Positions 2,216 through 21,791 are shown, counted from the first letter of the stretch. The stretch: 64,000 nt of DNA from Candidatus Omnitrophota bacterium (GCA_043805415.1 JAZDHZ010000027.1:71542-135541), one strand, 5' to 3'. Translations and numbers: made by a program. Notes: a model not told the origin generated them from the sequence alone.

Positions 2216-2662
2216 TCATTTTAACATCCGCGCCTTGCGCCTATTCATAAACCATAAAATAATAAAATAAAATATTATTGCTAAAATTAAACCCAGGACA
2301 AAGCTGCCGATAAACAGCGGATAATAAAAATCAAGCATCTGCTTAAATGTAATTCCCTTGAAATCCGATAAACTTAATGGCTCATAACGAGCCCCGAGAA
2401 TCAATCTCCCGATACTATAACCTGCCCAGGTAATAAACGGAAGAGTTGGCGGCAAAGAGATATTAGTTCCGATTAAAATAGCGATTTTATTAGCCCGCGG
2501 AATCAAAATAGCAAAAATAACGCAAAGAATTGTATGAAAGCCATAAAGCGGCATAATCGCGATCATCACCCCGATAGAAACCCCTAAAGCAATTTCCGGC
2601 GGCGTATTATTAAGGGTTAGCAACTTAGCTAGAATCTGTTTAAATTTTGCTTTTGAAATCAT
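2216..2662 (-). CDS. DUF2062-family small polytopic membrane protein
   Basis: 148 aa. Segment PEIALGVSIGVMIAIMPLYGFHTILCVIFAILIPRANKIAILIGTNISLPPTLPFITW matches the conserved DUF2062 pattern (AxGxAxGxF..P..G.Q..A..R.N....G..ISNP.T). It is the last gene of the rSAM/AsmA-like operon. Confidence 0.55.
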   Translation of the reverse strand: MISKAKFKQILAKLLTLNNTPPEIALGVSIGVMIAIMPLYGFHTILCVIFAILIPRANKIAILIGTNISLPPTLPFITWAGYSIGRLILGARYEPLSLSDFKGITFKQMLDFYYPLFIGSFVLGLILAIIFYFIILWFMNRRKARMLK

Positions 2663-2847
2663 TTATTTCACACAATCATTTTTCTAAATAAAGCTTAAGT
2701 ATCTTTTATTTGGCTTAATATATGCGCTATTATAGCCCTAAGCTATCTAGAAAGCAATTTAAGGTATTTTACATTTATCATCAAACATTATCGCAAAACA
2801 GATAAAACCCGATATATGGTGATAAAATTTCCTGTTTTATTTGCAGT

Positions 2848-4557
2848 TTATTGTCGGACTTCAGCTGGCAGGAGAGAATCAGTTGGAGTATCAGCAAGAT
2901 TATCAAAAACCTTTAACTCAAGCTCAAGCGGCACAAAACCAGCGCTAGCTTGATTTTCTTGAACCAGACCTATGCTTATCCTTTTAGGTTCAAAACCTTG
3001 CGCAATAATAAAATCATCGGCAGCCTTGGCACGTTCCGCGGCTAAAGCCTTAAGCGCTGATTTGTCCGCTGCCCCATCTTCAATCATCTGGCGTTTAATC
3101 TCTTGATTAATTTTATTAAAATCATAGCCGCCTGCTTTTAAACGATATGCTTTGATAAGCTTCCGAAGCGCGAATGCACCAAAACGGTGTTCATATATCT
3201 GCTCATATATCCAATTATCCGAACGTTTGGATTCTTTTCTCATTAACAAAAAGTTGTTCTCGAAAACCTCGGTTTTAATCGCCCGCCAATCCGCTACTGG
3301 GTCATAACATTCTTTCACCACAAGAGTAAGATTTGGTCGCTCTTTTAAGGCGCTTACAATCAATTTTAATTTTTCTTTTTCACCATCAGATAAGTCCGTC
3401 CCCCCAGGTAAAAAATTTACATAACCAAACTCTTCAGCGCTGTTTTCCGAACCAACAAGTGATACTAAGAAGCTAAACGGCTTGGTAACAATTTTAAAGA
3501 AAAAATTCCTTGCCACCTGTCCGACAAGCTTAAAATAATGAAAATCAGGGCTGTTCATGTCACCATCAACTGGTAAGGATATATTGATCCGGTTTTGCGA
3601 ATCCTCCAATAAAGCTAAGGCCAGCCCAAAAGGAAGGTTTAAAGCGTCTTTACTCTCAACCTTGTCTCCAAAATCAAATCCCTGAACCAGAATCTTGTGC
3701 TTAGCATCCAGTTTATTATCCTCAATTCGATACTCCATAGTTATATTCAATTTTCCACTTTTTGCCGCGTGCCCAGTGTACTTCCCCACATAAGGAGTTA
3801 ATACCTGCAGAACATAATCATTAAGCTTAAACACGGTCTCAAATGAAAAAGGAATCGCGAATGGTTTAATAAGTGTTTCATCAGTAATTGTCCCTTGATC
3901 ATCAATCTTTGCCTGAAAAGAAACTTTAGCTTGAGCATCCGGACTGGTAGAGAGATTAACAATGCGCAAAGTCATATTGCTTAAAGCCGTAACAAAGTCA
4001 GGATTTACTGATTTATCAATAAAACAAATGCTTCCCTTATTCATGCTTATTGAATCCACCCTGACCAAAGGAAGCGGTAAGGATTTGTCAGTTCCCGCTT
4101 CTGGGATATTGCCATTTTGAGCAGGAGCAGGCTGCTGAGATTGGGATTTTTCAGTTTGCTTTGGAACAAGCTCTAATAAATTAATATTGCCCTCACCTGA
4201 TAGAACAATATTCACTTTAAGCCCATTTATCCCTAACGATTCTATGTGGTATTTTTTTTGCAATAAGCTGATAAAACTAATATCCAGCCAAAATTTATCA
4301 AATCCGACAATGATCTGTTTATTGCTATCCAATATTTCCAAGCCTTTTACTGATAATCTCAATAAAAACGGATTGAATTTTACCGAACACACTATAACCT
4401 TATGACTGATAAGTTTGGAAACTTGGCTTTTGATCAGCCATGGACAAATCAGGGGAATCAGCACAAGTGATAAGCATAAATAAAACAAAAAAATCCCCAA
4501 AATTACTTTGGCTATAATCTTAAGTGTTTTTTTATAATATTCATTTTTTCTTTCCAT
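2848..4557 (-). CDS. AsmA-like / DUF748-family envelope protein (N-terminal membrane anchor, large periplasmic domain)
   Basis: 569 aa with an N-terminal TM helix (ILGIFLFYLCLSLVLIPLICPWLI) followed by a long beta-rich domain. The architecture is typical of the AsmA-like/DUF748 lipid-transfer superfamily. The family call rests on architecture only. Confidence 0.4.
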   Translation of the reverse strand: MERKNEYYKKTLKIIAKVILGIFLFYLCLSLVLIPLICPWLIKSQVSKLISHKVIVCSVKFNPFLLRLSVKGLEILDSNKQIIVGFDKFWLDISFISLLQKKYHIESLGINGLKVNIVLSGEGNINLLELVPKQTEKSQSQQPAPAQNGNIPEAGTDKSLPLPLVRVDSISMNKGSICFIDKSVNPDFVTALSNMTLRIVNLSTSPDAQAKVSFQAKIDDQGTITDETLIKPFAIPFSFETVFKLNDYVLQVLTPYVGKYTGHAAKSGKLNITMEYRIEDNKLDAKHKILVQGFDFGDKVESKDALNLPFGLALALLEDSQNRINISLPVDGDMNSPDFHYFKLVGQVARNFFFKIVTKPFSFLVSLVGSENSAEEFGYVNFLPGGTDLSDGEKEKLKLIVSALKERPNLTLVVKECYDPVADWRAIKTEVFENNFLLMRKESKRSDNWIYEQIYEHRFGAFALRKLIKAYRLKAGGYDFNKINQEIKRQMIEDGAADKSALKALAAERAKAADDFIIAQGFEPKRISIGLVQENQASAGFVPLELELKVFDNLADTPTDSLLPAEVRQ

Positions 4558-4687
4558 ACTGATTATCGCGTTTCTAGGTTTGATTAAATGTCTGTTTATT
4601 TAATTTCAGTGATTATTTATAAGATATCTAATTTTACCCCCAAGTATTACCATTGTCAATCAGTCTATATATTCGATTTTTCTCTGA

Positions 4688-6367
4688 TTATCTTACGAAT
4701 TTTATTTTTGTTTCTCCCTCACCAACGCCGCATACTCTTAATCCGCGTAAAGCCTTTCGAATATCTTTATTCAAAACAAATTCTTCTGGTTTAAAACTAT
4801 AAATAAACTCTCCCTTTTCTTTAGATTGTTTCACCCGGTAGATTATTGACTCGTCCAAAAGCATACGCAAACAGATTTTTCCCAGACTATTGCGGTCAAG
4901 TTTTAGCCTAGAACGCAATTGCCTGTCCTTGATCACCTGCCCCTTGGTCTGTTTGCACAGAAATTTTCTCAGATCAGGAATCAGAGCAGAAGCTGTTAGC
5001 TCCTTGATGAAATTAATTATCCTGGCAAAATACACTAAAGAAAAAATCCGATCGCGCGAAATATCCTGGTCAAAACAAGCCGCGCTGCTGCGAAACAAAA
5101 CATAATCATCTTCCGGATTGCAAAACACATCAGCTAATTCTGAAAACAAAGTACTCTCCTTGACTGGATAAAAAATACTCGGCCCAAGCAAAGCCGGCTT
5201 AGCTGCCAGCAAGCGAATATCTCTTAAACCATCTTTAAATCCCTGCCCGGGAAAACCCACAATATAATGAATAGTTGGCACAATATGCTTTTTGGCCATA
5301 AACCTGGACAGGTTAAATACCTTAGCCGTAGGATCATTGCGGTGCAGTTTTTTCCTTAAGCGTTCTTGAGAACTGGCAATTGCCAGATCAATGTGGGTTA
5401 ATCCTGCCTGGATTAGTTTATCCCGCGTAATCCGGTCAATGCCTGAAGCTAATAAACCATTCATAAATGATATTTTTATTGTGCCGCTAAAACGCTGGAT
5501 GATCTTATCCAGCAGCGGCCGGAATTCTGGATTAAGATTTATCGTATCATCTTCAAAATTAAAATGCCGGATCCCTAAGCTAAAAGCATCTTCCATCTCC
5601 AGCATTACATGATCGGCGCTGCGGAAGCGAAACGTCTCGCGGATAGCGCAAAACCGGCAGCCCATACTGCAGCCGCGTGATGCCAGCAGCGATGTACTCA
5701 TACAGCCTTGAAAAACATACTTAGTATAGTCAATCAGCCTGCGGTTTAAAATCGGCAGAGAATTAAGATCTTTTATTATTGCGCTTTGCCTGCTGATCCG
5801 CATCTTACCGTCATCGAGCTTATAACACAGCCCGGGAATATAGCCTAACTTACCTTTTTCATGGGCCTGGCATAATTTTAAAAAACTCTGTTCTGCCTCG
5901 CCTTTGATTACAAAATCTATTTCCGGCCGTCCCAGCACAAACTTCGCGTCCGAGGTCGCCGCTCTTCCGCCAAAAACCACCTGAATTCTGGAATCAATTT
6001 TCTTTACCAGTTTGGCCACAGCAAAAGCATTATCCAGATAAGCAGTGAAATTAGCCGATATCCCGACCATATCCGGCTTTTCTCGGCAAATAGTTTCAGA
6101 GATCTGCCGATCATCCTTGCCAAAGCAATAATAATGGGAAAACAGACAAAAAGCAGAGCGATTAGGCTGATAATAGCGTTTTAGATAAAGCAATTGTTTG
6201 GGAAAAGCCAGAGACTGTTTAGTATAGTCTTCCAGACAATTCAAAACTTTTACGCTGAGGCCGTTATAATCAAGCACAGTTGCCAGAGAAAGCGTTCCCA
6301 AAGGAAATGCCCGCTGCGGGGTAAAAAAGAAATCATTTATTGGGGGATTAATAATCAGAATCTTCAA
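4688..6367 (-). CDS. B12-binding (class B) radical SAM protein
   Basis: 559 aa. N-terminal cobalamin-binding Rossmann-like region (MKILIINPP...VGISANFTA...VVFGGRAATSD). Followed by a radical SAM core with CxxxCxxC (ASRGCSMGCRFCAIRE). Confidence 0.75.
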   Translation of the reverse strand: MKILIINPPINDFFFTPQRAFPLGTLSLATVLDYNGLSVKVLNCLEDYTKQSLAFPKQLLYLKRYYQPNRSAFCLFSHYYCFGKDDRQISETICREKPDMVGISANFTAYLDNAFAVAKLVKKIDSRIQVVFGGRAATSDAKFVLGRPEIDFVIKGEAEQSFLKLCQAHEKGKLGYIPGLCYKLDDGKMRISRQSAIIKDLNSLPILNRRLIDYTKYVFQGCMSTSLLASRGCSMGCRFCAIRETFRFRSADHVMLEMEDAFSLGIRHFNFEDDTINLNPEFRPLLDKIIQRFSGTIKISFMNGLLASGIDRITRDKLIQAGLTHIDLAIASSQERLRKKLHRNDPTAKVFNLSRFMAKKHIVPTIHYIVGFPGQGFKDGLRDIRLLAAKPALLGPSIFYPVKESTLFSELADVFCNPEDDYVLFRSSAACFDQDISRDRIFSLVYFARIINFIKELTASALIPDLRKFLCKQTKGQVIKDRQLRSRLKLDRNSLGKICLRMLLDESIIYRVKQSKEKGEFIYSFKPEEFVLNKDIRKALRGLRVCGVGEGETKIKFVR

Positions 6368-6382
6368 ATATATACTTATTTC

Positions 6383-7633
6383 TCATCTGCCGTTAGAAAT
6401 ATTGAAATAACCCTGGAGCAATTTGGGAAATTCTTTTTTTAATCTCCCCATTATGGTTTTTACCCCTAAAAGTTTTCTTGGCCCGGAACGTTTATGTCCC
6501 AATTCCTGGAAATAGCGCTGCGGATCATAGTTTAAGTTCCGCCACTGGATCATATCTACAGCAGTCTTGCGGATAAATCTCTCTAACTTTTGCCATTCCG
6601 CAACCTCGTCCGTAAACCCTGGCATAGTCAGATAATTTATCGACACAAATTTTCCTTTATTTTTAGCAAGCATAACTGAACGGATAACATCCTCAAATTC
6701 ATATCCGATCGGCCGGTAATATTTATTATAAAATTCTTTTCTTAAGCTGTTAAAACTTACCCGCAGGCTATCCAATCCGCTGTTACAAAGTTTTTCCACA
6801 ACCCTGGGCAGGCTGGCGTTTGTATTCATGTGAATCGTTCCTTTGGCAGTCTTGCTCCTTATTATCCTTATCGCTTTATCAATAACCTCCCCGGCTAAGA
6901 GCGGTTCTCCCTCACATCCCTGGCCGAAACTGACAATTGCTTTACGCGTGTTTTTTATGTGCAGCAGCGCGATCTCGGCAAGCTCCTCCGGAGTCGGCAT
7001 AAAACTTATCCTTTCCTGCGAAGAAACACAAGAACCTTTTTCCTGAAAAGATATACAGCCAAAACACCCCGCGTTACAATGCGGCGATGACGGCAAAGGA
7101 CACTCGTAGCGGCCGAGAAAAAAATTTATCGCGTTAGGGCATTGAGAATTAAGCGCGCAAGTGCGCAGATGCATAATCAAACGATTACTTGTTTTTCTGA
7201 ACTTTTGAATATTCCTGCGTACATCCGCCATATTCACTAAGCTCAAATCATGCACTTTTCTCTGGTCAACGCGTATTGCCGGTACATGAAACCTGCTCTT
7301 ATACCAGACCAGCGGCGCGTAGGAAAACAAAGGCAGAATCTCTGCTCCAGGCTCTTCTTTATACGCGCAGGTAAATAACTGCGTATAACCCGGCGGCACA
7401 AACGCGGCTACTGGAAAATAATCCGCTATTTCCCGAAATATCTTTTGCCGCAGATCAAAACCCAGCGGCCTTCTTTTCGGCAGAAAAAAAATCTTTGTTT
7501 GGCAAGGCATAGGAATAAGATCTTTTTCCTCCAAAGCAAAAATATTCTCGCCAGCCATAGCGCAGGCAGCAAAGCCCTTAACATCGCTTATGTTATTATT
7601 TTTATCCGCAATCAGTAATATTGGTTTTGCCAT
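6383..7633 (-). CDS. Radical SAM protein with an N-terminal domain of unknown function
   Basis: 416 aa. CX3CX2C motif (CNAGCFGC) at about residue 180 followed by a glycine-rich SAM-binding segment. The N-terminal ~170 aa is unassigned. Separated from the B12-rSAM gene by 15 bp. Confidence 0.65.
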   Translation of the reverse strand: MAKPILLIADKNNNISDVKGFAACAMAGENIFALEEKDLIPMPCQTKIFFLPKRRPLGFDLRQKIFREIADYFPVAAFVPPGYTQLFTCAYKEEPGAEILPLFSYAPLVWYKSRFHVPAIRVDQRKVHDLSLVNMADVRRNIQKFRKTSNRLIMHLRTCALNSQCPNAINFFLGRYECPLPSSPHCNAGCFGCISFQEKGSCVSSQERISFMPTPEELAEIALLHIKNTRKAIVSFGQGCEGEPLLAGEVIDKAIRIIRSKTAKGTIHMNTNASLPRVVEKLCNSGLDSLRVSFNSLRKEFYNKYYRPIGYEFEDVIRSVMLAKNKGKFVSINYLTMPGFTDEVAEWQKLERFIRKTAVDMIQWRNLNYDPQRYFQELGHKRSGPRKLLGVKTIMGRLKKEFPKLLQGYFNISNGR

Positions 7634-7694: not shown

Positions 7695-9080
7695 TTATTT
7701 GCTTATTTCATCAACTTTTTTCACGCTAATAGCAATAAGATACCCCAAAACAATAACCATGCTCACTAATGCGAAAATAAGCAGTTTTTTAGGTGATATT
7801 ATCGGCTTATGTTTAATATCCGCATTCGCATTAACTTTTTCTTCTCCGATTTTCCAGCGTTCACCGTTAACCAATGGTATTTCCGATAATACTGATGAAA
7901 CATCATAATGAGGCGCTTTAGCTTCCGGCCCTCCATAATAAGCTTTTAAATTTTTCGCGTTATTGGGAAAAAATATCACTTCATGAACAGAGCCTTCGGC
8001 CTGAACCGAGTTGACTTCAATCGGAGCATTATCATAATTAAATATCCGGACGCGGTATTTTTTATACCTATTTTCTTTATCAGGTAAATCAATCCTGAGA
8101 TTTTCCTTATGAAAATCTCCAGCGTTTATATTGAATAATTCACCCGCAACAAGTCTGATCCAGTTTGCCTCAGGATTTAAAGGATTATCCGCCTCCACAA
8201 AAACTTTACGTTTAAAGTTTCTGTCTGTGATGCTAAATAATATCCGGGTTAAAGGCTCTCTTTGCGAATTCAAATAGATATCGCTGGTTTTATCTTTTTC
8301 ATTAATTGTCACTTTTGCTATATCCAGGGGATAAGGAACCGTCTTAATTTCCCCATAAACCATCTTTTCTTCCCGGCTAATAAAATCAAGCTTGTCGATA
8401 TGCAGCACACCCTCATAACGCATAAAAGCAGCATACTCTTCTTTAACTTTTCCTTTTGCGTATTTAGTAAATATTTGCGAAAATGAGGAAACAAGCGCTT
8501 GCGCCACATTATCAATGACAATCTTATAATATTTAAACGGTTTTTTCTCAAAAGATACGCTGGTATTGCTAAGATCGATAAATCGCGAATAATCAAAAAT
8601 CGGCTGATTCTCACAAAGAATCTGCCATTGCGTTTTATCGTCACTGCCAAACACTGACACTGTTTTTTCAAAATTACTATTTGAAGTTTTAATGATTACA
8701 TCTGAAGGAATAATCAATTCTTTTTGCTTTTGTTTTTCATCATCTATTTCCAAGACAATACTCAGTCTATTGTTCGCAAGCTCTTCAAGGCTTAAGATTT
8801 TCATAGCAACCGGAGATTCGGTTAGAATCTTTTCCTGTCCTCTTAATTTCCGGACCAGATAAGGCACTTCCTTATCTTTCGCGTCATAAATCCTCAAATT
8901 GGCAAAATCATTATCAGTATTAAGATATAGCTGACTATCAAAAGTCGCTGCGCCCACTTCCTGTTCCATATTTTCAGGCGCTGTTAATTCCTTGTAGAAT
9001 AAGAATTCATTTGCCGATACTGGTGCTGCTAAACAAACTGCCAGAACTAAAATACTGAATATCCTAATCGAGTTTTTCAT
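7695..9080 (-). CDS. Secreted/anchored DUF3999-like protein (signal peptide, C-terminal TM helix)
   Basis: 461 aa. N-terminal signal peptide (MKNSIRIFSILVLAVCLAAPVSA) and C-terminal hydrophobic helix (LLIFALVSMVIVLGYLIAISV). Overlaps by 4 nt the downstream end of a large polytopic membrane protein gene. DUF2339/DUF3999 pairs are commonly arranged this way. Confidence 0.35.
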   Translation of the reverse strand: MKNSIRIFSILVLAVCLAAPVSANEFLFYKELTAPENMEQEVGAATFDSQLYLNTDNDFANLRIYDAKDKEVPYLVRKLRGQEKILTESPVAMKILSLEELANNRLSIVLEIDDEKQKQKELIIPSDVIIKTSNSNFEKTVSVFGSDDKTQWQILCENQPIFDYSRFIDLSNTSVSFEKKPFKYYKIVIDNVAQALVSSFSQIFTKYAKGKVKEEYAAFMRYEGVLHIDKLDFISREEKMVYGEIKTVPYPLDIAKVTINEKDKTSDIYLNSQREPLTRILFSITDRNFKRKVFVEADNPLNPEANWIRLVAGELFNINAGDFHKENLRIDLPDKENRYKKYRVRIFNYDNAPIEVNSVQAEGSVHEVIFFPNNAKNLKAYYGGPEAKAPHYDVSSVLSEIPLVNGERWKIGEEKVNANADIKHKPIISPKKLLIFALVSMVIVLGYLIAISVKKVDEISK

Positions 9081-11500
9081 TTTTCCTCCTCAATAGCGAA
9101 TTTCTTGTTCGCGTAAATATAGGCAAAAGATCCTCCGATTAATATTATTCCTAAGAGCATAAACGCGATTACTCTATAAAAAACTTCCATCTCAGCAAGA
9201 TCAAATAAAAATACTTTACCCATAACAACAATAAACAATCCTAGTCCGCTATATCGCCAATTCTTGCTTGACTTGACTATCCCGATTATAAGGTAGGAAA
9301 CTGCGAATAAAGCCCATACTACTGATATCGCGCCCTCTTGGAAAGATTTCACATACCAATAGAAAAAGGTATTAACTTCCAGAGAAGAATAGATAAACAG
9401 CAAGCCGGTACTTATGACTATAAACGCCTTACGGTAATCTACTAAATCCTGTTTCCTAGAAACTAGCTGCGTAATTCCAATTAGATAAAGAAAAATTACG
9501 CCGTAATCAAAAACCCGGATTAATATCGGTACTGAACCTTTCTCGTAAATATACCCATTAATATTGCTCACCCATCCGGAATAATCATAGAAAAATAATT
9601 TCCCGATAATAAACGCGATTAATATTATTGCTGCTGATAAAAAAACCCGCTTATTAGTAGAAAAATAATTATATAAAATATATCCCCCTAAGATACAGGA
9701 TAATAGCGTGAGCACTGGCATTTGTAATGGCAAACAATAGGAAACCATCTGAAAAAACTCTAAATAAAGGATAAAGAACACAAATGCCACTCCCCCCCAA
9801 AACATTACTTCACGCGAAACCGCGGATGATACTAACAATCTGCTATTAATCTTCTCCTCCACTTTAAAATCTTCAATCTGCTTAATTTTACGTTTATGCA
9901 AAAAGAAGCCACTGAAAAAAGAAGCGATAACCACACCAAAAGTCCAGATTCGATCAAAAAATATTGCCCAATACTCACTTAACGGCAGCGTTGCCGCAAA
10001 GCGGCCTAAGAATTTACTCGGCATATCAATAAGTAATAGTCTGCTCACAACCATTAAGTATAAAATATGAGCAAGGTTTATCAGCAGGTTGCTATTTAAT
10101 TTCAAACCTATCCAAAGGAAGAAAAATGCCTGCAATGCCCAGCAGATAGTCAGTGTTTCTTTTTGGGTAATCAACGGTACTGCCCAGACCGTAAAGAAGC
10201 CAGCAACCCCTATCAAACAAACTAACAAATTACGGTCAACATTGCGGTTTTTAAGAAAAACGTAAATATGCGTTATGTAAAAAACAGCTACCCCGATTGC
10301 CATAACTGCTGGCCAAGGACGGCCATAAGCTTCTAAAATTAAAGCGTATGCTGTTAAGGAATAGAAAAAAGAGTTAAAAAGCATATGAATTATTTCTAAG
10401 TTTGAGGATTGTTTACGTTTAACCAGGTTATAATAAAATATGATCATCCCATGCAAAATAAACAATAAACTAAGCAGCGTTATTGTTCCAGGAAAGTCTC
10501 TTTTTACCTGATAGCCGGAAAAACTCGCGAATACTAAAGCCCAGGTGAATATAAACCCTAGGTAATTTAATAAACGCCAATTGCGCACATGGGCTATAAT
10601 TAAAATACCGATACTAAGTATCAGCATATAAGCATATAGACCTACTGGGCTTGCTTCAGGAGTGCTTAATATTATCGGAGTACAGAAGCCGCCAATAATT
10701 CCAAAAATAGCTACTAGTTGCGAATTAAACTTATATGCCATTACTCCCGCGACAATAGTAATTAAAACCATAAAAGCAAATGTACCGGACAAGGGAATCT
10801 TGGCATATAATGGACCAGCGGCGTACATGCTAAAATAAAGAGCCGCCAAACCACCGCCTAAAAAGCCTTGCCCAAGAATATCATATTTTTTATTAAGATT
10901 CTTAACCCCTACCCCTAACATAGAAAGTCCAGCCATTATCGATAAGGCTATGCGCCCGGTATTACCTAAAATTCCTCGATCCATTGACCATTTTAGAAAA
11001 TAGCCAATACAAATAACTATGGCAATAACTCCCAGTCTCATCAGCCAAGTACTGGCAATCGCGTATTCGATTGATACGTTTTTCTGGCGGCGTTCTTCCC
11101 CAACCAGTATCCAATTCCAGATCTTTTTTAAAATATCATTAACGCCCTCTTCAAGCTTTGATTTTTGACGATCAACTTTAACTGTCGGCTTTATATTTAC
11201 AGCAGCAGGTTTTAAAATCGCTGGCTGTTTTTTGGATACTTGCGAAACCTCGCTGACTTTTTTCAAATCCATAACCGGCTCTTTTGGCACCTCTTCAAGG
11301 TTTTTAGCTTCAGCTGGCTTAGGAATATCCTTATCCGACTCTGGCTCAATATGCTTAATCAGCTCTTCCAGCTTTTGGCGTAGCGGCACAAGAGAAAGAT
11401 AAATATCTCTTTGCAAATCAAGTCTTGTCTCTTTTAATAATTTTTCTATGATCTTTAAAAAAATGGAACCAAAAACAATAAGGGCTATAATATAAAACAT
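9077..11500 (-). CDS. Large polytopic membrane protein, DUF2339-like
   Basis: 807 aa. N-terminal ~150 aa are soluble and charged, followed by more than 20 predicted TM helices. The size and architecture match the DUF2339 family. Confidence 0.45.
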   Translation of the reverse strand: MFYIIALIVFGSIFLKIIEKLLKETRLDLQRDIYLSLVPLRQKLEELIKHIEPESDKDIPKPAEAKNLEEVPKEPVMDLKKVSEVSQVSKKQPAILKPAAVNIKPTVKVDRQKSKLEEGVNDILKKIWNWILVGEERRQKNVSIEYAIASTWLMRLGVIAIVICIGYFLKWSMDRGILGNTGRIALSIMAGLSMLGVGVKNLNKKYDILGQGFLGGGLAALYFSMYAAGPLYAKIPLSGTFAFMVLITIVAGVMAYKFNSQLVAIFGIIGGFCTPIILSTPEASPVGLYAYMLILSIGILIIAHVRNWRLLNYLGFIFTWALVFASFSGYQVKRDFPGTITLLSLLFILHGMIIFYYNLVKRKQSSNLEIIHMLFNSFFYSLTAYALILEAYGRPWPAVMAIGVAVFYITHIYVFLKNRNVDRNLLVCLIGVAGFFTVWAVPLITQKETLTICWALQAFFFLWIGLKLNSNLLINLAHILYLMVVSRLLLIDMPSKFLGRFAATLPLSEYWAIFFDRIWTFGVVIASFFSGFFLHKRKIKQIEDFKVEEKINSRLLVSSAVSREVMFWGGVAFVFFILYLEFFQMVSYCLPLQMPVLTLLSCILGGYILYNYFSTNKRVFLSAAIILIAFIIGKLFFYDYSGWVSNINGYIYEKGSVPILIRVFDYGVIFLYLIGITQLVSRKQDLVDYRKAFIVISTGLLFIYSSLEVNTFFYWYVKSFQEGAISVVWALFAVSYLIIGIVKSSKNWRYSGLGLFIVVMGKVFLFDLAEMEVFYRVIAFMLLGIILIGGSFAYIYANKKFAIEEEK

Positions 11501-11831: not shown

Positions 11832-12323
11832 TTAAGCTTTCGGTTTTTCATCTCCAGCTCCTTTAATCGCTTTAAAACTTTTTCGTATTTTTACCAGTAA
11901 TTGGTTTAAACTGCGGCTTTCATCATCAGAAACGCACATCATATTTTTTTCAATTACTTTCAAATATTCCGGCTCTACTTCTTCTAATTTTCTCATCCCC
12001 TGCGCAGTTAATTGTACATGATAAACCCTTCTGTCTCCCTCAACTGGCAACCTGCGCACATAACCTTTTTTTTCTAGTTTGTCTATCAACCCGGTAACAT
12101 TGCCCCGGCTAGAAACCATCCGCTCGCTAATTTCTACTTGAGTAAGTTTTCGCTTCTCCAGTTTAATAATAATCATAACATTATATTGAGCATCAGTAAT
12201 ATCAAATTTTCTAAAGAAATCTCTAGAAATCTTATCCAAACAATTAGCAGTATATACGATACTTAATACCGCTTCATGCCGCAATGAATCAATTTTTTGC
12301 TTTATTTCTTTATCCAGAGACAT
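11832..12323 (-). CDS. MarR-family transcriptional regulator
   Basis: 163 aa with a winged-HTH segment (LTQVEISERMVSSRGNVTGLIDKLEKKGYVRRLPVEGDRRV) typical of MarR. Confidence 0.75.
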   Translation of the reverse strand: MSLDKEIKQKIDSLRHEAVLSIVYTANCLDKISRDFFRKFDITDAQYNVMIIIKLEKRKLTQVEISERMVSSRGNVTGLIDKLEKKGYVRRLPVEGDRRVYHVQLTAQGMRKLEEVEPEYLKVIEKNMMCVSDDESRSLNQLLVKIRKSFKAIKGAGDEKPKA

Positions 12324-14570: not shown

Positions 14571-17231
14571 ATGTTAAAAATACTTAAAAAATCCTTAGTT
14601 ATAATAAGATTGCTTGTATTTTTTTTACTAACAAGCATTACTTACTTACATGCTGATAGTAGCGTATCGCAGCACAGTACGACAACTATGAGTTTTTTAA
14701 TTACTGAACAGGCCATGCTTGCGCCTCGCATCACCAGCAATAGTCTTAAAATTTCTGATTATATTCAAGCCTTTACTATTTGCAGAACCATTGAGGGACG
14801 ATCTCCTCATAAGCTTTCCCTTAACGAAATAATGTCCTCATTGGACACAACCGATCCTTTATTTAAGGAGTGCCGGTTTGAAACCAAGTTAAAAGAACTG
14901 TACATTTATCTTCCTAACAGCGCTCTTTGCATTCGCTACTTTAACCCGTATCCAGAAATAATGCGCGATTTACCTGATAATGGGATTATGCTTAATGCTC
15001 AATTGTACCGCCAAATCAGTGTGCTTACAAAAAAGTTATACCCTGACGTCCAACAAATAAACCCGGCAATTCACCCCAGCGTCAAAGCTGTTGTATTTGA
15101 TTTTGACGGCACCATCGCCGACACCATTCCGCATATTCTTCGAGCCTTTGGAAAAATTATTTACGCCATTACACAAGCAACTTCCGATATTCCTCCTGAA
15201 GATTATTCGCCATTAGCTGCTAAGTTTTTAGATGAGCGCCAATGGCAACCAGTAACCACACATATCAACAATCTGATACAAGAAGCAATCCAAGGAGGCG
15301 TTTCCCAGCATCAGCTTACTGAAATCATGACTCAATTGGCACATAAGTATAATATTATCGGCCTGCGTCAAGAAGCGATGGACATGGGATTCGCTCAGAT
15401 ATATGAAGCTGCTTTGCTGAATGAAATCAAAACCAATCCGCCCCAACCGTTTCCCGGCGCCAGGCAATTTCTCTATTCTTTATACCAGTCCGGTATACGC
15501 ATGTACATTGCAACAGGAACCACCCAAACCGTTGTTGAATATCTTACCCAACAATGGGGCATTGACAGCGGATTTGATGTTATTTACGGCGTGCCTACGG
15601 ACAGACCGTATGGATTTAGCCGGAACAAAACCGATATTCTCGAAGAAGTTAAAAATAATTTAGGACTGTCTGCCGGTGAAATCGCAATTGTCGGTGATTC
15701 TCGGGATGATATGCGTGCCGCAAAGAATCCTTCCCTGCCGGCAAATGAGCGTTTTGTCGCAATTGGTATTTCCAATGAGCAATCCGGACGTGATTTATTA
15801 GCAAACAACGGTGCAGATTTCCTCATCCCGGGGTTATCTGCCTGGCAATCACTTTGGAATACTCTTAGCATCTCTCTACCGACGCTAACGCTGGCAATGC
15901 CGAAAAATAGAGCAGATGGCCTACCCTTTCAATTTGCTATCGGTCATGCGGTTAAGGGAGGCACAAATTTAAAACAGCTTAAAAGTACCGCGCAGGAATT
16001 TGCCACATTTAAGAGCAGTATCATTGAACAAGTACAGGCTCTCCCTGATTCACCATCAGCTTTAGACCTCAATGCTGTTGATTTCAATCAGCCTTTTTTA
16101 AAACTATTTCCCATCATTCGATACGCCCTTGAAACAGATAGTCATTCAGATTTTATGCGCATTATAAACAGTATTATTGAATCACAAACGCTTTCCCCTG
16201 AACAGAAAAAAGAATCGTTTCTTACAATAATGGCCTGGAGTAAACATTTTCCCGCTTCAATAAAACGTGAAAATTATTGCGCTTACTCCTTTGAAATGTT
16301 TGCGCAGGCAGTACAAGAATATCAACAACAGCATCCGCAACAGCTTATTAATGTTGGCGAGCTGGGAAGCGGAGACGGACTGGCTATCTTTCAGTATAAA
16401 AATCTCTTGCGCATGCAGGGAATTAAAGCTGATTACACCCAATTTGAAATTGACCAAGCAAGTATTGATAAATCCCGGCTGTTCAATCAAAAAGACACCT
16501 TTGTGGCCGGGGATCTGGCAAATCTGCCCGAATCAGAAAAGGCAAAATATCGCGCTAAATTTGATGTGATCATGCTTAATAATGTAATGCATGAACTCTT
16601 TGCTGTTTATGGCGAACAAGGGATTAAAACTATTTTAAGCTCTGCTGCTGAATTATTAAAACCCGGCGGAGTTCTGGTTTTCCGAGATGGTATTTATCCG
16701 CAAAACGGAGGCCGCTATACTCGAATAGCAATCTCGCCCCAATACGAAGAAGCCTTTCTTTTCTTTCAGACACATTATAAATTTCGAACAGCGTTATTCC
16801 CCGGGATTTATGACAATGAAGTAGTTCTTCCCCTCGGAGATTTAGCGAAATTCTTAACAAAGATAAAATTCATAGAAGCCAATAAATTATGGGAGGACCG
16901 CTACGGAATAGAAGGCGAAATGCATCAAGTATACTGCTTTGCGAATATAGACGACTATAATCATTTCCTTACAGACGCAGGTTTTCATATTTCAGAAGTC
17001 ACCTTGGGTAATGAGCAGGAATCTTTGGCTTTATGGAAAAAAGCTGTTCCATTTAGCCAACCATTTTTTATGGAGCAAAGAGATGAAGGTGGTCCACATT
17101 CACCAATCAGTGAACAACGCCGCGCAGACGAAGACTCGCTCGCGCGTTTTTCCCTTAGTGATGTATTACAGCATGGTAAAAAGGAACCTGAGGAAAACTC
17201 TGCCACAACCTTGATCCAACAATCAATTTAA
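14571..17231 (+). CDS. Secreted multidomain protein: signal peptide + N-terminal domain + HAD-superfamily hydrolase domain + class I SAM-dependent methyltransferase domain
   Basis: 886 aa. Signal-peptide-like N-terminus (MLKILKKSLVIIRLLVFFLLTSITYLHA). HAD motif I VVFDFDGTIADT and motif III/IV IAIVGDSRDDMRAAKN. Methyltransferase motif I (INVGELGSGDGLAI), an acidic post-I residue, and motif III (LLKPGGVLVF). Q/E-rich C-terminal tail. A 335-bp upstream intergenic region. Confidence 0.6.
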   Translation: MLKILKKSLVIIRLLVFFLLTSITYLHADSSVSQHSTTTMSFLITEQAMLAPRITSNSLKISDYIQAFTICRTIEGRSPHKLSLNEIMSSLDTTDPLFKECRFETKLKELYIYLPNSALCIRYFNPYPEIMRDLPDNGIMLNAQLYRQISVLTKKLYPDVQQINPAIHPSVKAVVFDFDGTIADTIPHILRAFGKIIYAITQATSDIPPEDYSPLAAKFLDERQWQPVTTHINNLIQEAIQGGVSQHQLTEIMTQLAHKYNIIGLRQEAMDMGFAQIYEAALLNEIKTNPPQPFPGARQFLYSLYQSGIRMYIATGTTQTVVEYLTQQWGIDSGFDVIYGVPTDRPYGFSRNKTDILEEVKNNLGLSAGEIAIVGDSRDDMRAAKNPSLPANERFVAIGISNEQSGRDLLANNGADFLIPGLSAWQSLWNTLSISLPTLTLAMPKNRADGLPFQFAIGHAVKGGTNLKQLKSTAQEFATFKSSIIEQVQALPDSPSALDLNAVDFNQPFLKLFPIIRYALETDSHSDFMRIINSIIESQTLSPEQKKESFLTIMAWSKHFPASIKRENYCAYSFEMFAQAVQEYQQQHPQQLINVGELGSGDGLAIFQYKNLLRMQGIKADYTQFEIDQASIDKSRLFNQKDTFVAGDLANLPESEKAKYRAKFDVIMLNNVMHELFAVYGEQGIKTILSSAAELLKPGGVLVFRDGIYPQNGGRYTRIAISPQYEEAFLFFQTHYKFRTALFPGIYDNEVVLPLGDLAKFLTKIKFIEANKLWEDRYGIEGEMHQVYCFANIDDYNHFLTDAGFHISEVTLGNEQESLALWKKAVPFSQPFFMEQRDEGGPHSPISEQRRADEDSLARFSLSDVLQHGKKEPEENSATTLIQQSI

Positions 17232-19233: not shown

Positions 19234-20022
19234 TTATTTAAGGATTCTTTTGCGCATCATAGCCATGCTGAAAAAAATACAGCCGATAGTCATAGCGGCA
19301 AGATAAAGCAAGTTAAAATAGTCAAGGCTGCAGGTATCACATAATGCCAGAGTGCGCAGTGACGAGACCAGACAGGTTAACGGCATGACTGCCGCCGTTT
19401 TCTGCGCCCATAACGGCAGCGAAGATATCGGGAAAAATACTCCGCCAAAAAGAAACATCGGAGTAACAAACAAAAATACCGGAAAATTAAACATTTCGAT
19501 ATTTTTCACTAAAGAGGTAAAACACATGCCTAAAGCGGAAAAGGCCATGCCCGCCAGAAAGGTGACTGGTACGCACACAATAGCCGCGCGCCAGGGGATC
19601 AAGCCCCAGATTACCACGATAACCAGCATTATCCCCGCGGCCATCACTGACTTTGTCGCTCCCCAAACTATCTCCCCAAGGATAACGTCCTCAAGCATCA
19701 AAGGCGTAGACAAGATTGCGTCATATGTCTTCTAAAAATACATTCTCACAAAAGAAGCGTATGTCGTCTCAAAAAATCCGTGATTCATGACCGCGGCAGC
19801 CACCAGCCCCGGTGCGATAAACTGCAGATAGGAAACCGCCCCAGCGCGGTAAGTAACTTCCGGGACCAGATTCCCCAGTCCCACCCCAAAAGCCAGCAGA
19901 TAAAGCAGCGGTTCTAAAAGCGGCGGGATAAAATTTACTTTCCAGGTCGCTTTATATACGTCAAAATTCCTCTGCCATATCCTTATCGCCCGCCAGCTTA
20001 TATTATGTAATATTGCCCTCAT
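19234..20022 (-). pseudogene. ABC-2 family transporter permease interrupted by an in-frame TAG
   Basis: Two tool ORFs (19732..20022 and 19234..19713) are in the same frame and are separated only by a TAG (plus strand cta at 19732-19734). The read-through translation ...FVRMYF*KTYDAILSTPLMLEDV... gives a single ~262-aa polytopic ABC-2 permease. Confidence 0.6.
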
Positions 20023-20070
20023 CAGGTCATTCCCTCAGTCCCCGGCCGGTAAGTTTCAAAAAAACATCTT

Positions 20071-20965
20071 CTAAGTTTGCCATGCGCAGCGCGCAGGAAC
20101 TTTCACCGAATTTTTTCGATATTTCAGGCCATAACAAATTTGTTTTATGCCCGTAAATAAAAAAATGGGTAAGGTTTTTTTCGTAATCCAGCCCCTTAGC
20201 CTTTCAATATTATTATCCACAGAACCTATTTCTATCACCAAAGAACCCATATATTTTTCAATTAACGCTTTGGGAGAGCCGCGGTCTATTATCTTCCCCT
20301 GATCCATAATAACCAGCCTGTCACAAAGATGCGATGCTTCATCCATATTGTGAGTAGTTATTAAGATAGTCGTCCCTTCTTTTTTTAATTCGTGAAGCCT
20401 TTCCCATATCTGATGCCTTGACTGCGGATCAAGCCCGGTTGTCGGCTCATCAAGAATAAGCAGCCGCGGCCTATTCACCAAAGAGCGCGCGATCATCAGG
20501 CGGCGTTTCATCCCGCCGGATAGTTCATCAATCCGCGCGTCTTTTTTTATGTAAAAGGCCCATAAACTCAAGCAGCTCCACATTGCGCAGATTAGCCGAT
20601 TCTCCGATTATATCAAAATACCGCGCAAAAAACCGCAGATTATCCAGCACTTTCAAGTCCGGGTCAAGATTATCTTCCTGCGGACAAACCCCAATATTCG
20701 TCTTAATAAAACGAGCAAACCGGTCCGTTCTCTTCCCAAACACTTCCAGCGTTCCGCCGCTGGGCTCAAGAAAACAGGAGATCATTCGTATTAAAGTCGT
20801 CTTCCCCGCTCCGTTAGGGCCTAAAAATCCCAAACATTCCTGAGAATTAACGGAAAAATCTATGCCGTTTACCGCTTTAAAGCCGCTGAAGGCTTTGCTT
20901 AGATCTTGAGCATTAACGATACTATTTTTTTGGGAATTCTCATCAGCCATCATTTTATCATCCAA
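20071..20965 (-). pseudogene. ABC transporter ATP-binding protein disrupted by a frameshift at an A7 homopolymer
   Basis: The N-terminal ORF (20528..20965) has Walker A GPNGAGKTT and a Q-loop. The C-terminal ORF (20071..20583, different frame) has the ABC signature LSGGMKRR, Walker [13 protein letters not shown] and the H-loop TTHNMDEA. The frames switch at the run aaaaaaa near 20546-20552. The C-terminal ~40 aa read as nonsense next to further A7/T7 runs. Confidence 0.6.
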
Positions 20966-21000: not shown

Positions 21001-21440
21001 TTATTTTATTAACATATTCATTATTATTTGAATATTTGTTTCATCCGCGATATTTTTAACTGAAATAAGATTGCTTAAAAGACTAATTGTTTTTTGCAAT
21101 TCCAGGTATTTATAATCTGATGCCTTTAAGCGCTTTTCATTAATCGTATACCCATCAACTAAGTGCTTTTTTAATACATTGGTCGCCCAGATACAAAATT
21201 GAGTAGCCTGTGTGGAATTCACACGGTAACCAACAGAAATAATAGCATCCAAATTGTAAAATTTAGTCTTATAAATTTTGCCATCACCGGCAGTATGTTC
21301 CAAACAATTTTGCAATATGAGCCTGCGTCAGCCAAACTGTCTCTTTCTCCAGCCGGACTTCGACTTTATTTTTATAAACCACAACCTGCCCTTTAGATAT
21401 TTCTTGTGATTTCACAACTTAAACTCCTTAGATAAAATTA
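21001..21440 (-). pseudogene. Truncated and frameshifted RhuM-family protein gene
   Basis: ORF 21001..21315 carries the RhuM core (YNLDAIISVGYRVNSTQATQFCIWATNVLKKHLVDGYTINEKRL). The RhuM N-terminus (VVYKNKVEVRLEKETVWLTQAHIAKLF) is encoded in another frame at about 21330-21440. The C-terminal half of the family is missing. Confidence 0.5.
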
Positions 21441-21503
21441 TATCTATTTTAAACAGTGTTTCGGCCGCATTATTCCTCCTTTGTTTTTCTTCTCTCCGCA
21501 TAA

Positions 21504-21791
21504 TCAGCATACAGTATATGTATGTAATTTAAGAGCCGCTGCTGCTTCATCAACAGTAGCGTAGTAATTTTTGCGGCTTTCACAATGCTGCGGTTTAATA
21601 TGATTCTTTCCGGTATTAACATTCATTTGAGCAGGTGGTTCAATCCGAATATCCATATCTTCAGAAAAACGATGAATTATTCCATACCCTTTAGAAAGCG
21701 ATGTGCCGCCTTTTAACTCAAATTGAAATTCATTTTGCTGCAACCCATATAATACACGCATTATCCAATAATCCTTTTCCACTTCTTCCAC
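21504..21791 (-). pseudogene. N-terminal fragment of an AbiEii/DUF1814-type nucleotidyltransferase (abortive-infection toxin family)
   Basis: 95 aa. Segment ELKGGTSLSKGYGIIHRFSEDMDIRIEP matches the nucleotidyltransferase motif (hGGTAL...RhSEDlDh) of AbiEii-family proteins, which are usually ~300 aa. It abuts katG and has no AbiEi partner. Confidence 0.45.

Follow-up and report, generated by a model that had tools for sequence, protein, structure and literature searches.

Locus organisation and transcription

The window analysed in this study is a stretch of 64,000 nucleotides from a MAG contig of Candidatus Omnitrophota. Four genes lie on its minus strand between positions 2216 and 7633. The features of the locus, with the basis of each assignment, are given below.

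6383..7633, minus strand: rSAM416, 416-aa radical SAM enzyme (ORF and Pfam)
6368..6382, minus strand: 15-bp spacer from the rSAM416 stop to the TTG start of B12-rSAM (ORF coordinates)
4688..6367, minus strand: B12-rSAM, 559-aa class B radical SAM enzyme, TTG start (ORF and Pfam)
4631..4659, minus strand: sigma-70-like promoter match TTGACA-17-TAAAAT, 11/12 (consensus match only)
2848..4557, minus strand: DUF748 protein of the AsmA/TamB-like superfamily, 569 aa (ORF and Pfam)
2216..2662, minus strand: DUF2062 membrane protein, 148 aa (ORF and Pfam)

This layout is in accordance with the original prediction, which described four minus-strand genes separated by 15-190 bp and whose domain calls were borne out by Pfam for all four; the gaps along the run measure 15, 130 and 185 bp. 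The same-strand run exceeds these four genes, with MarR, DUF2339 and DUF3999 genes upstream and a GNAT gene downstream. Homologue searches at E<=0.001 gave 7151 matches for rSAM416, 123 for B12-rSAM and 211 for the DUF748 protein. Many of these are full-length (about 95 of the 123 for B12-rSAM), hence the three large ORFs are real genes and not chance reading frames. The TTG start of B12-rSAM is supported as well, because its homologues begin with MKILLINPP at the same alignment position.

As judged from the spacing, rSAM416 and B12-rSAM are the only pair close enough for co-transcription to be predicted with confidence. Both larger gaps are AT-rich, and the promoter match falls inside the 130-bp gap upstream of the DUF748 gene; sigma-70-like sites numbered 39 across the region against a shuffled mean of 33.7, which is no excess. 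The GC3 values of the two rSAM genes were 0.448 and 0.421, that of the DUF748 gene was 0.344 and the window mean was 0.362. No riboswitch or defence signature was present at the locus.

The 416-aa radical SAM enzyme

The rSAM416 protein matched Pfam Radical_SAM with 67 bits over residues 182-343. A helical linker (residues 135-173) joins its all-beta N-terminal domain (about residues 1-125) to the rSAM core, which holds the cluster motif C186-x3-C190-x2-C193. Cys159 and Cys165 of the linker are invariant in the family alignment, and the enzyme probably carries an auxiliary Fe-S site. The AlphaFold2 model had a pLDDT of 89.3, and Foldseek retrieved only generic rSAM cores (BlsE, HydE, PFL-AE, NifB, MoaA) at TM values of about 0.4. 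No NCBIfam family reached its cut-off, the best being MoaA with 40.4 against 284 bits, and no ArsS or HpnH model matched at E<=0.01. Assignment to MoaA, NifB, BlsE (28.5 against 400 bits) or PFL-activase (20.4 against 232 bits) was therefore rejected, the likeness being one of core fold only.

The N-terminal domain had been described as unassigned, and it stays so: none of the Pfam families matched its roughly 175 residues, even with the threshold relaxed to E<=5. The domain forms 305 clusters at 50% identity, nearly always within the same architecture, and is family-specific. Members with 43-64% identity are spread over Omnitrophota, Elusimicrobia, Planctomycetia, Desulfobacterota and Chitinophagaceae, and among cultured strains the family is present in Desulfobacter vibrioformis DSM 8776, Desulfopila aestuarii DSM 18488 and Desulfoluna butyratoxydans.

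The 559-aa B12-binding radical SAM enzyme

The domain profile of the second enzyme showed a B12-binding domain (PF02310, 56.2 bits against a gathering score of 32.1) and Radical_SAM (51.5 bits). An N-terminal Rossmann-like B12-binding domain is followed by the rSAM barrel and a C-terminal domain of about 120 residues built of helices and a beta-hairpin, which gave a weak winged-helix match (TFIIE_alpha, E 0.05). All three cysteines of the motif C233-x3-C237-x2-C240 are invariant in 23 aligned sequences. From these features the protein belongs to the class B (B12-binding) radical SAM superfamily, and use of cobalamin is predicted. One of its PDB matches, AprD4, is a relative in which B12 does not serve as methyl carrier.

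The predicted model (pLDDT 93.6) superposes on TsrM, CysS and TokK, the Foldseek TM values being 0.56-0.62. The best PDB profile match was MgmA (9CCB, 3e-18), a protein glutamine C-methylase and the closest solved relative by sequence, and TokK scored 1.7e-15. With TsrM, TokK, CysS and MgmA the enzyme thus shares the three-part build and the CX3CX2C barrel, but it is only 13-18% identical to them, reaches no curated cut-off, and its gene lies outside any antibiotic or MCR-modification cluster. The 22 NCBIfam matches were all far below their cut-offs, the best scoring about 86 bits against 481-575. Among the candidates rejected were BchE (86 against 481 bits) and the RiPP maturases rSAM_ocin_1 (69.5 against 281.85) and ApyD (69.2 against 750), no precursor gene being adjacent. 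The gene behaves as a phylum-wide, single-copy conserved gene.

Comparison with lipid-tailoring enzymes

The radical SAM enzymes known to tailor lipids comprise HpnH, HpnJ, HpnP and HpnR, then Tes, Mss, Gms, GrsA/B and Gmm, and the ladderane B12-rSAM (PMC13459092). Homologues of Mss, Gms or ElbD are described in the literature for some Omnitrophota. The likeness of the present pair to these systems lies in the general idea of an rSAM and a B12-rSAM acting on unactivated lipid carbons. The scores differ widely: B12-rSAM was rejected as HpnJ (61.4 against 577.6 bits), HpnR (49 against 650) and the ladderane enzyme rSAM_ladder_B12 (58.5 against 360). The Tes structure 7TOL was absent from the PDB matches of the rSAM416 profile (E<=1) and of the B12-rSAM profile (E<=0.1), and no NCBIfam match was named Mss, Gms, GrsA/B or Gmm, a comparison made at the level of names only. 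For Mss-type homologues, the published criterion is e<=1e-50 with at least 30% identity to validated enzymes (PMC13159169). Membership of a lipid-specific family was found for neither rSAM in NCBIfam or the PDB profiles; neither enzyme reached the HpnJ, HpnR, BchE, ladderane, RiPP or MoaA cut-offs.

The DUF748 and DUF2062 proteins

Hydropathy analysis placed membrane segments in these two proteins and no hydrophobic segment in either rSAM. The DUF748 protein has a single one (residues 10-46, Kyte-Doolittle peak 2.78), which corresponds to an N-terminal membrane anchor, and the DUF2062 protein has about three. The Pfam DUF748 match was very strong (369 bits against a gathering score of 50). An N-terminal AsmA match of 24.6 bits fell below its gathering score of 29.8, and a weak OmpA-like motif of 20-23 bits lies near the C-terminus. 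The AsmA-like call of the original prediction therefore holds at the superfamily level and fails for the AsmA model itself. Orthologues with 45-68% identity occur across Omnitrophota, some with a Pfam OmpA domain call (PF00691).

DUF748 is related to AsmA and TamB (PMC4494059), and the literature groups it with AsmA, TamB and DUF3971. According to a review, AsmA-like proteins are established candidates for intermembrane phospholipid transport, their links to the lipid-synthesis machinery being open. The 569-aa protein falls in the AsmA-like clan by its domain profile, and lipid transfer is a candidate function. Like the AsmA/YdbH/YhdP/TamB proteins (clan CL0401), it combines an N-terminal signal-anchor helix with a DUF748 region in the periplasm, and its length makes it a short form, as is E. 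coli AsmA; the sub-threshold AsmA score and the weak C-terminal OmpA-like motif set it apart.

The DUF2062 protein matched its Pfam family with 108.5 bits. TIGR03545 and TIGR03546 are presumably a two-gene pair of an AsmA-like protein and a DUF2062-type membrane protein. The DUF748 and DUF2062 genes of the window are likewise adjacent, but both are below the respective cut-offs (24.6 against 173.35 bits and 46.6 against 79.45 bits). The pairing of DUF748 with DUF2062 was seen in none of four DUF748 orthologue contexts outside the window (0/4).

Conservation of the gene set

The four genes are not a conserved operon or module, and relatives usually carry them scattered. All four together were never met elsewhere among about 170 loci, and pairs of the four families recur in at most 3% of these. 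Nine Omnitrophota orthologue contexts with 45-74% identity lacked the partners except for one adjacent DUF2062 gene and one DUF748 gene 2 kb away. The closest B12-rSAM orthologues, in L086 (74%) and L173 (71%), adjoin no DUF748, DUF2062 or rSAM416 gene; rSAM416 orthologues at 64, 59 and 58% identity have unrelated neighbours, and so do those of DUF748 (65, 56 and 48%). The idea of a coupled synthesis-and-export module, put forward from this one locus, found no backing as a conserved unit in the genome-context comparison.

The immediate neighbours were dominated by housekeeping genes. The top families were PrmA (15/144), HMGL-like and GT2 beside rSAM416, and MutY (7/131), an AlaX-like domain and PriA (5/131) beside B12-rSAM; DUF748 and DUF2062 were not among the top neighbour families of either rSAM in about 160 loci. 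Genes for methyltransferases of RNA and the ribosome (RlmN, RsmF, RlmM-like, PrmA, THUMP methyltransferase) recur near both enzymes. In L085, rSAM416 has an RlmM-like gene beside it and Tex close by; B12-rSAM adjoins an RlmM-like gene in L173, has Tex in its vicinity in L086, and adjoins RlmN or RsmF in L088, L089 and L157. As Tex and the RlmM-like gene turn up by one rSAM or the other depending on the Omnitrophota genome, the pattern fits regional housekeeping synteny and not a shared function.

These data are what would be expected if the four are independent housekeeping-type genes made neighbours by lineage accident, the few recurrences reflecting ancestral synteny and chance. The DUF748 protein would then be a general AsmA-like factor of the envelope or of phospholipid homeostasis, and the rSAMs would have an unrelated target such as RNA, a cofactor or part of the ribosome. 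The dispersal of orthologues at 45-74% identity among unrelated genes and the neighbour censuses speak for this explanation, as do the long AT-rich gaps before the DUF748 and DUF2062 genes, the promoter-like element and the difference in GC3 between the rSAM pair and the DUF748 gene. It is about as likely as the reading proposed below; the re-pairing of the families in distant genomes counts against it.

Recurrent pairings in distant genomes

L019 and L056, both Desulfobacterota MAGs and divergent, carry rSAM416 followed by B12-rSAM with order and strand as in the window; the family HMM gave their B12-rSAM 389 and 410 bits respectively. Identity between these loci is only 56-62%, and their flanks differ. 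About 0.1 such adjacencies would be expected by chance in some 160 loci, an estimate assuming about 3000 genes per genome, and the adjacency was seen roughly 20-30 times more often, which argues against unrelated neighbours.

Other pairs recur too. In L001, an Elusimicrobia MAG, the gene that stops 2 bp before the rSAM416 start is an orthologue of DUF748 with 44% identity and 745 bits, and a different class B rSAM sits divergently upstream. Two metagenome contigs carry Pfam-level DUF748 genes by members of the B12-rSAM family, directly downstream in L170 and divergent, with one small gene between, in L157; in L088 the distance is 2 kb. In L087 a DUF2062 gene with 49% identity to that of the window runs 4 bp into the start of B12-rSAM, and in L128 another lies 2.7 kb upstream of B12-rSAM. 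The flanks of B12-rSAM held 6 DUF748 or DUF2062 genes in 676 kb against 2 in 1163 kb for rSAM416, with p of about 0.03 by a conditional binomial test resting on few events. The pairwise recurrences of the four families modestly exceed chance. Synteny inherited within Omnitrophota cannot explain them, since the re-pairing occurs in different orders and phyla (L001, L019, L056, L087, L157, L170).

Proposed explanation and alternatives

The locus is tentatively read as a recent, lineage-specific juxtaposition of two units that may be loosely linked through envelope lipid handling. A loose functional connection is the preferred reading because the families, each normally alone, re-associate in different pairings in distant genomes; a shared envelope-lipid role is plausible but tentative, as relatives usually carry the genes scattered. 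The first unit would be the two rSAM enzymes, soluble and cytoplasmic, whose genes are closely packed and probably co-transcribed; their 15-bp gap and shared GC3 composition were counted for coupling. Its B12-rSAM is predicted to be of the cobalamin type, with the fold of the C-methyltransferases TsrM, TokK and CysS. The second unit would comprise the inner-membrane-anchored periplasmic DUF748/AsmA-like protein and the DUF2062 membrane protein, both genes being set off by long AT-rich gaps and perhaps transcribed from promoters of their own. At the cytoplasmic face, the two rSAMs might modify some hydrophobic component of the envelope, either a lipid or a lipid-linked glycan, one reaction being B12-dependent methylation and the other a further radical step. 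Handling of this component across the periplasm could then fall to the AsmA-like protein, possibly partnered in the inner membrane by DUF2062.

In a stronger form, rSAM416 and B12-rSAM would be an unrecognised lipid-tailoring duo that hands its product to a short DUF748 bridge with its DUF2062 partner. This is considered unlikely; the chemistry may be, for example, methylation or cross-linking of acyl or alkyl chains, or concern a ribosyl- or glycosyl-lipid head.

An ArsS- or HpnH-like role of rSAM416 in a nucleotide-sugar or adenosyl-transfer pathway was also considered, in which B12-rSAM would methylate a glycosylated or ribosylated envelope product and DUF748 would be secondary. An ArsS-type system comprises TIGR04282 and TIGR04283 transferases, a phosphoesterase and an rSAM; both transferase families bear the name 'arsenosugar biosynthesis glycosyltransferase'. 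A TIGR04282+TIGR04283 fusion, which scored 194.6 and 217.4 bits where the cut-offs are 134 and 182, lies directly upstream of rSAM416 in five Desulfobacterota loci, and protein P0400 fuses both to the rSAM416 N-terminal domain, but this protein is truncated and possibly a gene-calling read-through. Among Omnitrophota relatives, one rSAM416 gene abuts a GT2 gene and another follows a Metallophos phosphoesterase gene. Nucleotides or nucleoside sugars are the substrates of MoaA, BlsE and viperin, the nearest matches of the rSAM416 core in sequence and structure. Nevertheless, the association is limited to one order-level group and single cases, the window holds no TIGR04282 or TIGR04283 homologue or other such partner gene, and NCBIfam does not place rSAM416 among ArsS homologues, which makes this pathway a doubtful one for the present locus.

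That the pair matures peptides or proteins, as in RiPP pathways or in the manner of MgmA, with B12-rSAM methylating a side chain and its winged-helix-like C-terminal domain serving substrate recognition, is very improbable: MgmA as nearest solved relative, the RiPP C-methyltransferase matches (69 bits) and the TFIIE_alpha match are consistent with it, but the model scores are far under cut-off (69.5 against 281.85; 45.5 against 360), the gaps of 15, 130 and 185 bp hold no plausible precursor-like small ORF, the neighbour census showed no recurrent small ORF, protease or transporter, and the single-copy, phylum-wide B12-rSAM gene is unlike RiPP clusters. The original prediction had likewise argued against a RiPP pathway, and its family-level reading was not overturned, since the AsmA-like call survives, no precursor was found and neither rSAM was assigned to a well-known unrelated pathway.

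Significance

Taken by itself and on present evidence, the locus is made up of ordinary orphan genes, with orphan enzymes in young juxtaposition. If the lipid-tailoring duo were true, it would provide a genomic link of AsmA-like lipid-transfer proteins with lipid-modifying enzymes, none being described in the AsmA/TamB literature examined (including PMC4494059), and a candidate for the unknown bacterial lipid methylases of anaerobes. If the loose link between the two units is real, it would give a handle on the partners or substrates that specialise many short AsmA-like proteins, and on the enzymes by which Omnitrophota and other uncultured anaerobes tailor their membrane lipids. Whatever the cluster means, the rSAM416 family is widespread, strongly conserved and uncharacterised, and its presence in cultured strains permits its study.

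Gene organisation

The four open reading frames were found on the minus strand at 2216-7633, exactly where the original prediction had placed them, and its domain calls (rSAM, B12-binding rSAM, DUF748/AsmA-like and DUF2062) were borne out by Pfam, with the AsmA model itself staying sub-threshold.

Genes of the run at 2216-7633
6383-7633, minus strand, rSAM416: radical SAM (rSAM) enzyme of 416 aa; Pfam Radical_SAM, residues 182-343
4688-6367, minus strand, B12-rSAM: 559 aa, TTG start; Pfam B12-binding and Radical_SAM
2848-4557, minus strand, DUF748 protein: 569 aa; Pfam DUF748 369 bits, AsmA N-terminal match sub-threshold
2216-2662, minus strand, DUF2062 protein: 148 aa; Pfam DUF2062

The TTG start of B12-rSAM is supported because homologues open with MKILLINPP at the aligned position. 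The intergenic gaps are 15, 130 and 185 bp, tight spacing being confined to the two rSAM genes (15 bp), and the same-strand run extends past the four genes, with MarR, DUF2339 and DUF3999 upstream and a GNAT gene downstream. The 130-bp gap ahead of DUF748 contains a match to TTGACA-17-TAAAAT and the AT-rich 185-bp gap ahead of DUF2062 a TATAAT-like element, both being consensus matches only; terminator and promoter scans gave counts near the shuffled expectation and were taken as weak hints only. No riboswitch or other RNA element was detected among the Rfam models at E<=0.1 in window positions 1-14 kb. The GC3 values were 0.45 for rSAM416, 0.42 for B12-rSAM and 0.34 for DUF748, the window mean being 0.36 (sd 0.047). 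Among the sampled window genes, GC3 was highest in the rSAM pair and GNAT (0.42-0.45), and the rSAM genes (4688-7633) differ mildly in composition from DUF748 and DUF2062.

Directly upstream of the rSAM genes, a DUF2339 gene (807 aa, polytopic, >15 hydrophobic segments) and a DUF3999 gene (461 aa, signal-like N-terminus, C-terminal anchor) occupy 7695-11500 on the same minus strand with a 4-bp overlap. They are preceded by a MarR regulator (11832-12323) that has an 11/12 promoter-like site at 12396-12368. Homologues of DUF2339 and DUF3999 were not found in 80 rSAM416 loci, and DUF2339/DUF3999, MarR and GNAT were rejected as conserved cluster associates on the lack of tblastn matches in these loci.

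Elsewhere in the window, an ABC-2 type transporter at 19234-20965 appears broken. Its ATPase is split into two overlapping ORFs that differ in frame (20528-20965, ABC_tran positions 2-96; 20071-20583, positions 99-137) and its permease into two pieces (19732-20022 and 19234-19713), which indicates either a frameshifted pseudogene pair or an assembly error. Two truncated mobile/defence-type remnants lie beside it at 21001-21791, one of 104 aa matching only the first ~70 RhuM positions and one of 95 aa aligning with the beginning of AbiEii toxin. In an unusual fusion protein of 886 aa (14571-17231), a signal-like N-terminus precedes a HAD-type hydrolase domain (171-386) and a class I methyltransferase domain (~590-805).

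Properties of the encoded proteins

The 559-aa protein classifies as a class B rSAM by every criterion of sequence and predicted fold. It carries a B12-binding domain and an invariant C233-x3-C237-x2-C240 motif, and its model (pLDDT 93.6) superposes on TsrM, CysS and TokK at TM 0.56-0.62. Among solved structures, MgmA (9CCB), which C-methylates a glutamine of MCR, is closest in sequence. In the model, a helix/beta-hairpin domain occupies the C-terminal ~120 aa, with a weak winged-helix hint only. By the word-indexed search the family is small, with a first tier of ~95 clusters, nearly all from Omnitrophota (45-88% identity), followed by a tier at ~30% identity that is common in the metagenome scan (514 confirmed stretches).

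The rSAM416 family is widespread, with 7151 matches in the first search and 43-64% identity across Omnitrophota, Elusimicrobia, Planctomycetia, Desulfobacterota and Chitinophagaceae; cultured Desulfobacter, Desulfopila and Desulfoluna (Desulfobacterota) are among the carriers. Conservation is strong from end to end, the N-terminal ~175 residues included. The invariant cysteines comprise C186/C190/C193 of the SAM cluster together with C159, C165 and C240, a set that points to a possible auxiliary cluster. The AlphaFold2 model (pLDDT 89) showed an all-beta domain (1-125), helices (135-173) and the rSAM barrel. Foldseek retrieved generic cores only (BlsE, HydE, PFL-AE, NifB, MoaA, LipA and viperin) at TM ~0.4. 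The single sequence gave no PDB match at E<=0.01, and the family profile matched only NifB (1.8e-7) and MoaA-type cores. The N-terminal domain had been described as unassigned and indeed gave no Pfam match even at E<=5; it was found in 305 clusters among 1.84 billion representative proteins, nearly always as the N-terminus of ~400-450-aa proteins.

The HMM assignment of both rSAMs was also checked, and no curated NCBIfam family was reached, MoaA, HpnJ, HpnR, BchE, ladderane and RiPP models included. The best model for rSAM416 was MoaA (40 bits vs a cut-off of 284), and the 22 matches of B12-rSAM, among them HpnJ, HpnR, BchE, the enzyme of ladderane lipids and methylases of PhpK and RiPP type, were all far under their cut-offs. 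A 2026 review (PMC13459092) enumerates the lipid rSAM systems as Tes, Mss, Gms, GrsA/B, Gmm, Cds, HpnH/J/P/R, Jaw5 and the ladderane enzymes. Neither window rSAM matched any of these systems that is represented by an NCBIfam model or a PDB entry, and hopanoid, BchE, ladderane and Tes assignments were rejected on scores. Unusual lipids are plausible in Omnitrophota because homologues of Mss (15/267 MAGs) and ElbD (93/267) have been reported in the phylum, though nothing ties the two window rSAM genes to such lipids. An anti-phage defence system was rejected, as PADLOC yielded trivial rSAM-core matches only (23 and 17 bits).

The DUF748 protein has one hydrophobic N-terminal anchor, the DUF2062 protein ~three hydrophobic segments and the rSAM enzymes none. 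DUF748 is grouped with AsmA, TamB and DUF3971 (PMC4494059), and AsmA-like proteins are the current candidates in the literature for carrying bulk phospholipid between the two membranes. Across Omnitrophota the short DUF748 form is well conserved (45-68% identity), some members carrying a Pfam OmpA call (PF00691). Both window proteins weakly resemble the TIGR03545/TIGR03546 families, far under both cut-offs.

Conservation of the arrangement

The four-gene module is not conserved. In the rSAM416-anchored sample (80 genome loci, tblastn with all window proteins), rSAM416 had a B12-rSAM family member beside it in only 2 loci and a DUF748 orthologue beside it in a single locus; DUF2062 occurred once, 6 kb off. 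The Omnitrophota rSAM416 orthologues adjoin a peptidase (64% identity), a GT2 gene (59%) or, at 58%, a Metallophos gene, the opposite flank being an RlmM-like gene. The B12-rSAM orthologue of 74% identity is followed by 460 bp of non-coding DNA up to the contig end, that of 71% is flanked by RlmM-like and Band_7 genes, that of 53% is preceded by DUF2062, and those of 48% and 45% are the final gene of a row of RlmN, rSAM, flavin reductase and RsmF. The neighbours of DUF748 orthologues at 65, 56 and 48% identity are unrelated, and a conserved DUF748-DUF2062 pair was rejected, being absent beside four DUF748 orthologues. The neighbour census for rSAM416 (144 immediate neighbours, 84 loci) was led by PrmA (15), HMGL-like (7), GT2 (7), DUF2064 (5) and YgiQ-type rSAM (3), and that for B12-rSAM (131 neighbours, 78 loci) by MutY (7), tRNA_SAD (6), PriA (5) and ABC (5). 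From the orthologue contexts and the censuses, therefore, the window arrangement appears confined to very close relatives. The proteins P0125 (B12-rSAM, 79% identity) and P0245 (DUF748, 66%) probably share one JGI contig, judging solely from both being listed at 4067 bp.

Re-encounters of the families were searched with HMMs in all 172 fetched loci. In two Desulfobacterota MAGs (L019 and L056), a true B12-rSAM family member (389 and 410 bits; family range 355-850) comes next after rSAM416 on the same strand, the two loci being only 56-62% identical with differing flanks. The Elusimicrobia locus L001 carries a DUF748 orthologue (44% identity) that stops 2 bp ahead of rSAM416; upstream and divergent is another class B rSAM, scoring 61.6 bits with the B12-rSAM family HMM. 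Pfam-level DUF748 genes lie directly after B12-rSAM in L170, divergent from it with one small gene between in L157, 2 kb off in L088 and 5 kb off in L158. As for DUF2062, it overlaps the start of B12-rSAM in L087 and is located 2.7 kb upstream of it in L128. The rSAM416/B12-rSAM adjacency was thus seen twice independently plus the window, versus ~0.1 expected by chance on our own estimate (two specific single-copy genes, ~3000 genes per genome, ~160 loci). DUF748/DUF2062 genes numbered 6 in 676 kb of B12-rSAM flanks versus 2 in 1163 kb of rSAM416 flanks (p ~0.03, conditional binomial).

This re-association is a modest signal of few events, partly confounded by regional synteny in Omnitrophota, a phylum with an RlmM-like gene and Tex beside one or the other rSAM depending on the genome. 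The RlmM-like 2'-O-methyltransferase gene adjoins rSAM416 in L085 (9257-10273) and B12-rSAM in L173 (2148-3146), with scores of ~170-176 bits that fall marginally short of the cut-off (176), and Tex lies near rSAM416 or B12-rSAM in L085 and L086. Their placement suggests an old housekeeping neighbourhood common to both rSAM genes.

Interpretation

The window genes are ordinary in kind, being orphans within the rSAM, class B rSAM, AsmA-like and DUF2062 families, and the cluster is a young, non-conserved juxtaposition. Of the original interpretation, the observation and its domains stood and no precursor emerged, whereas the coupled synthesis and transport module failed as a conserved unit on the orthologue contexts and censuses. 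A loose functional link is plausible though short of probable, in which B12-rSAM, rSAM416 and DUF748/DUF2062 might handle a tailored envelope lipid or lipid-linked glycan; the repeated rSAM adjacency and the DUF748/DUF2062 counts near B12-rSAM are consistent with it. That the four genes are unrelated neighbours is an equally likely reading, to which the dispersed orthologues point and against which the same adjacency may be set.

Partner genes of rSAM416

A large rSAM gene lies directly upstream of rSAM416 in L014 (8219-9997), L028 (8152-9990) and L007 (1902-3674). The L014 protein scored 814 bits on the NCBIfam YgiQ model, and the other two are probably YgiQ as well, given their similar lengths and the neighbour census, in which Radical_SAM_N and DUF3362 mark 3 members. 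In these three loci, a second, larger rSAM is thus a recurrent partner of rSAM416, its family varying.

In five Desulfobacterota loci (L040, L041, L052, L064 and L075), a TIGR04282+TIGR04283 fusion gene lies directly upstream of rSAM416 (5220-6611 in L064, ~8.5-9.9 kb in the other four), both models being above cut-off. When the N-terminal domain of rSAM416 was searched for in other domain architectures ('Rosetta stone' approach), there was one informative exception, the metagenomic protein P0400, in which TIGR04282 and TIGR04283 are joined to this domain. Both families are named 'arsenosugar biosynthesis glycosyltransferase' at NCBI; TIGRFAMs originally introduced them as transferases tied to an rSAM/selenodomain enzyme and a phosphoesterase. 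In addition, rSAM416 is abutted by a GT2 gene in one Omnitrophota genome and a Metallophos gene in another. These partners and neighbours, together with the MoaA-/BlsE-/viperin-like core, suggest a nucleotide or nucleotide-sugar-type substrate. The window itself contains no TIGR04282/TIGR04283, GT2 or Metallophos partner gene, and it is unlikely that the run represents a pathway of nucleotide-sugar or adenosyl type with rSAM416 at its centre.

Peptide or protein maturation is very improbable: a RiPP pathway, already doubted in the original prediction for want of a precursor peptide, was rejected, as the small-ORF search found no precursor-like ORF in the 15-, 130- and 185-bp gaps and the RiPP rSAM models scored far under their cut-offs.

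For the orphan rSAM416 family as a whole, the association with TIGR04282+TIGR04283 may provide a clue to function.
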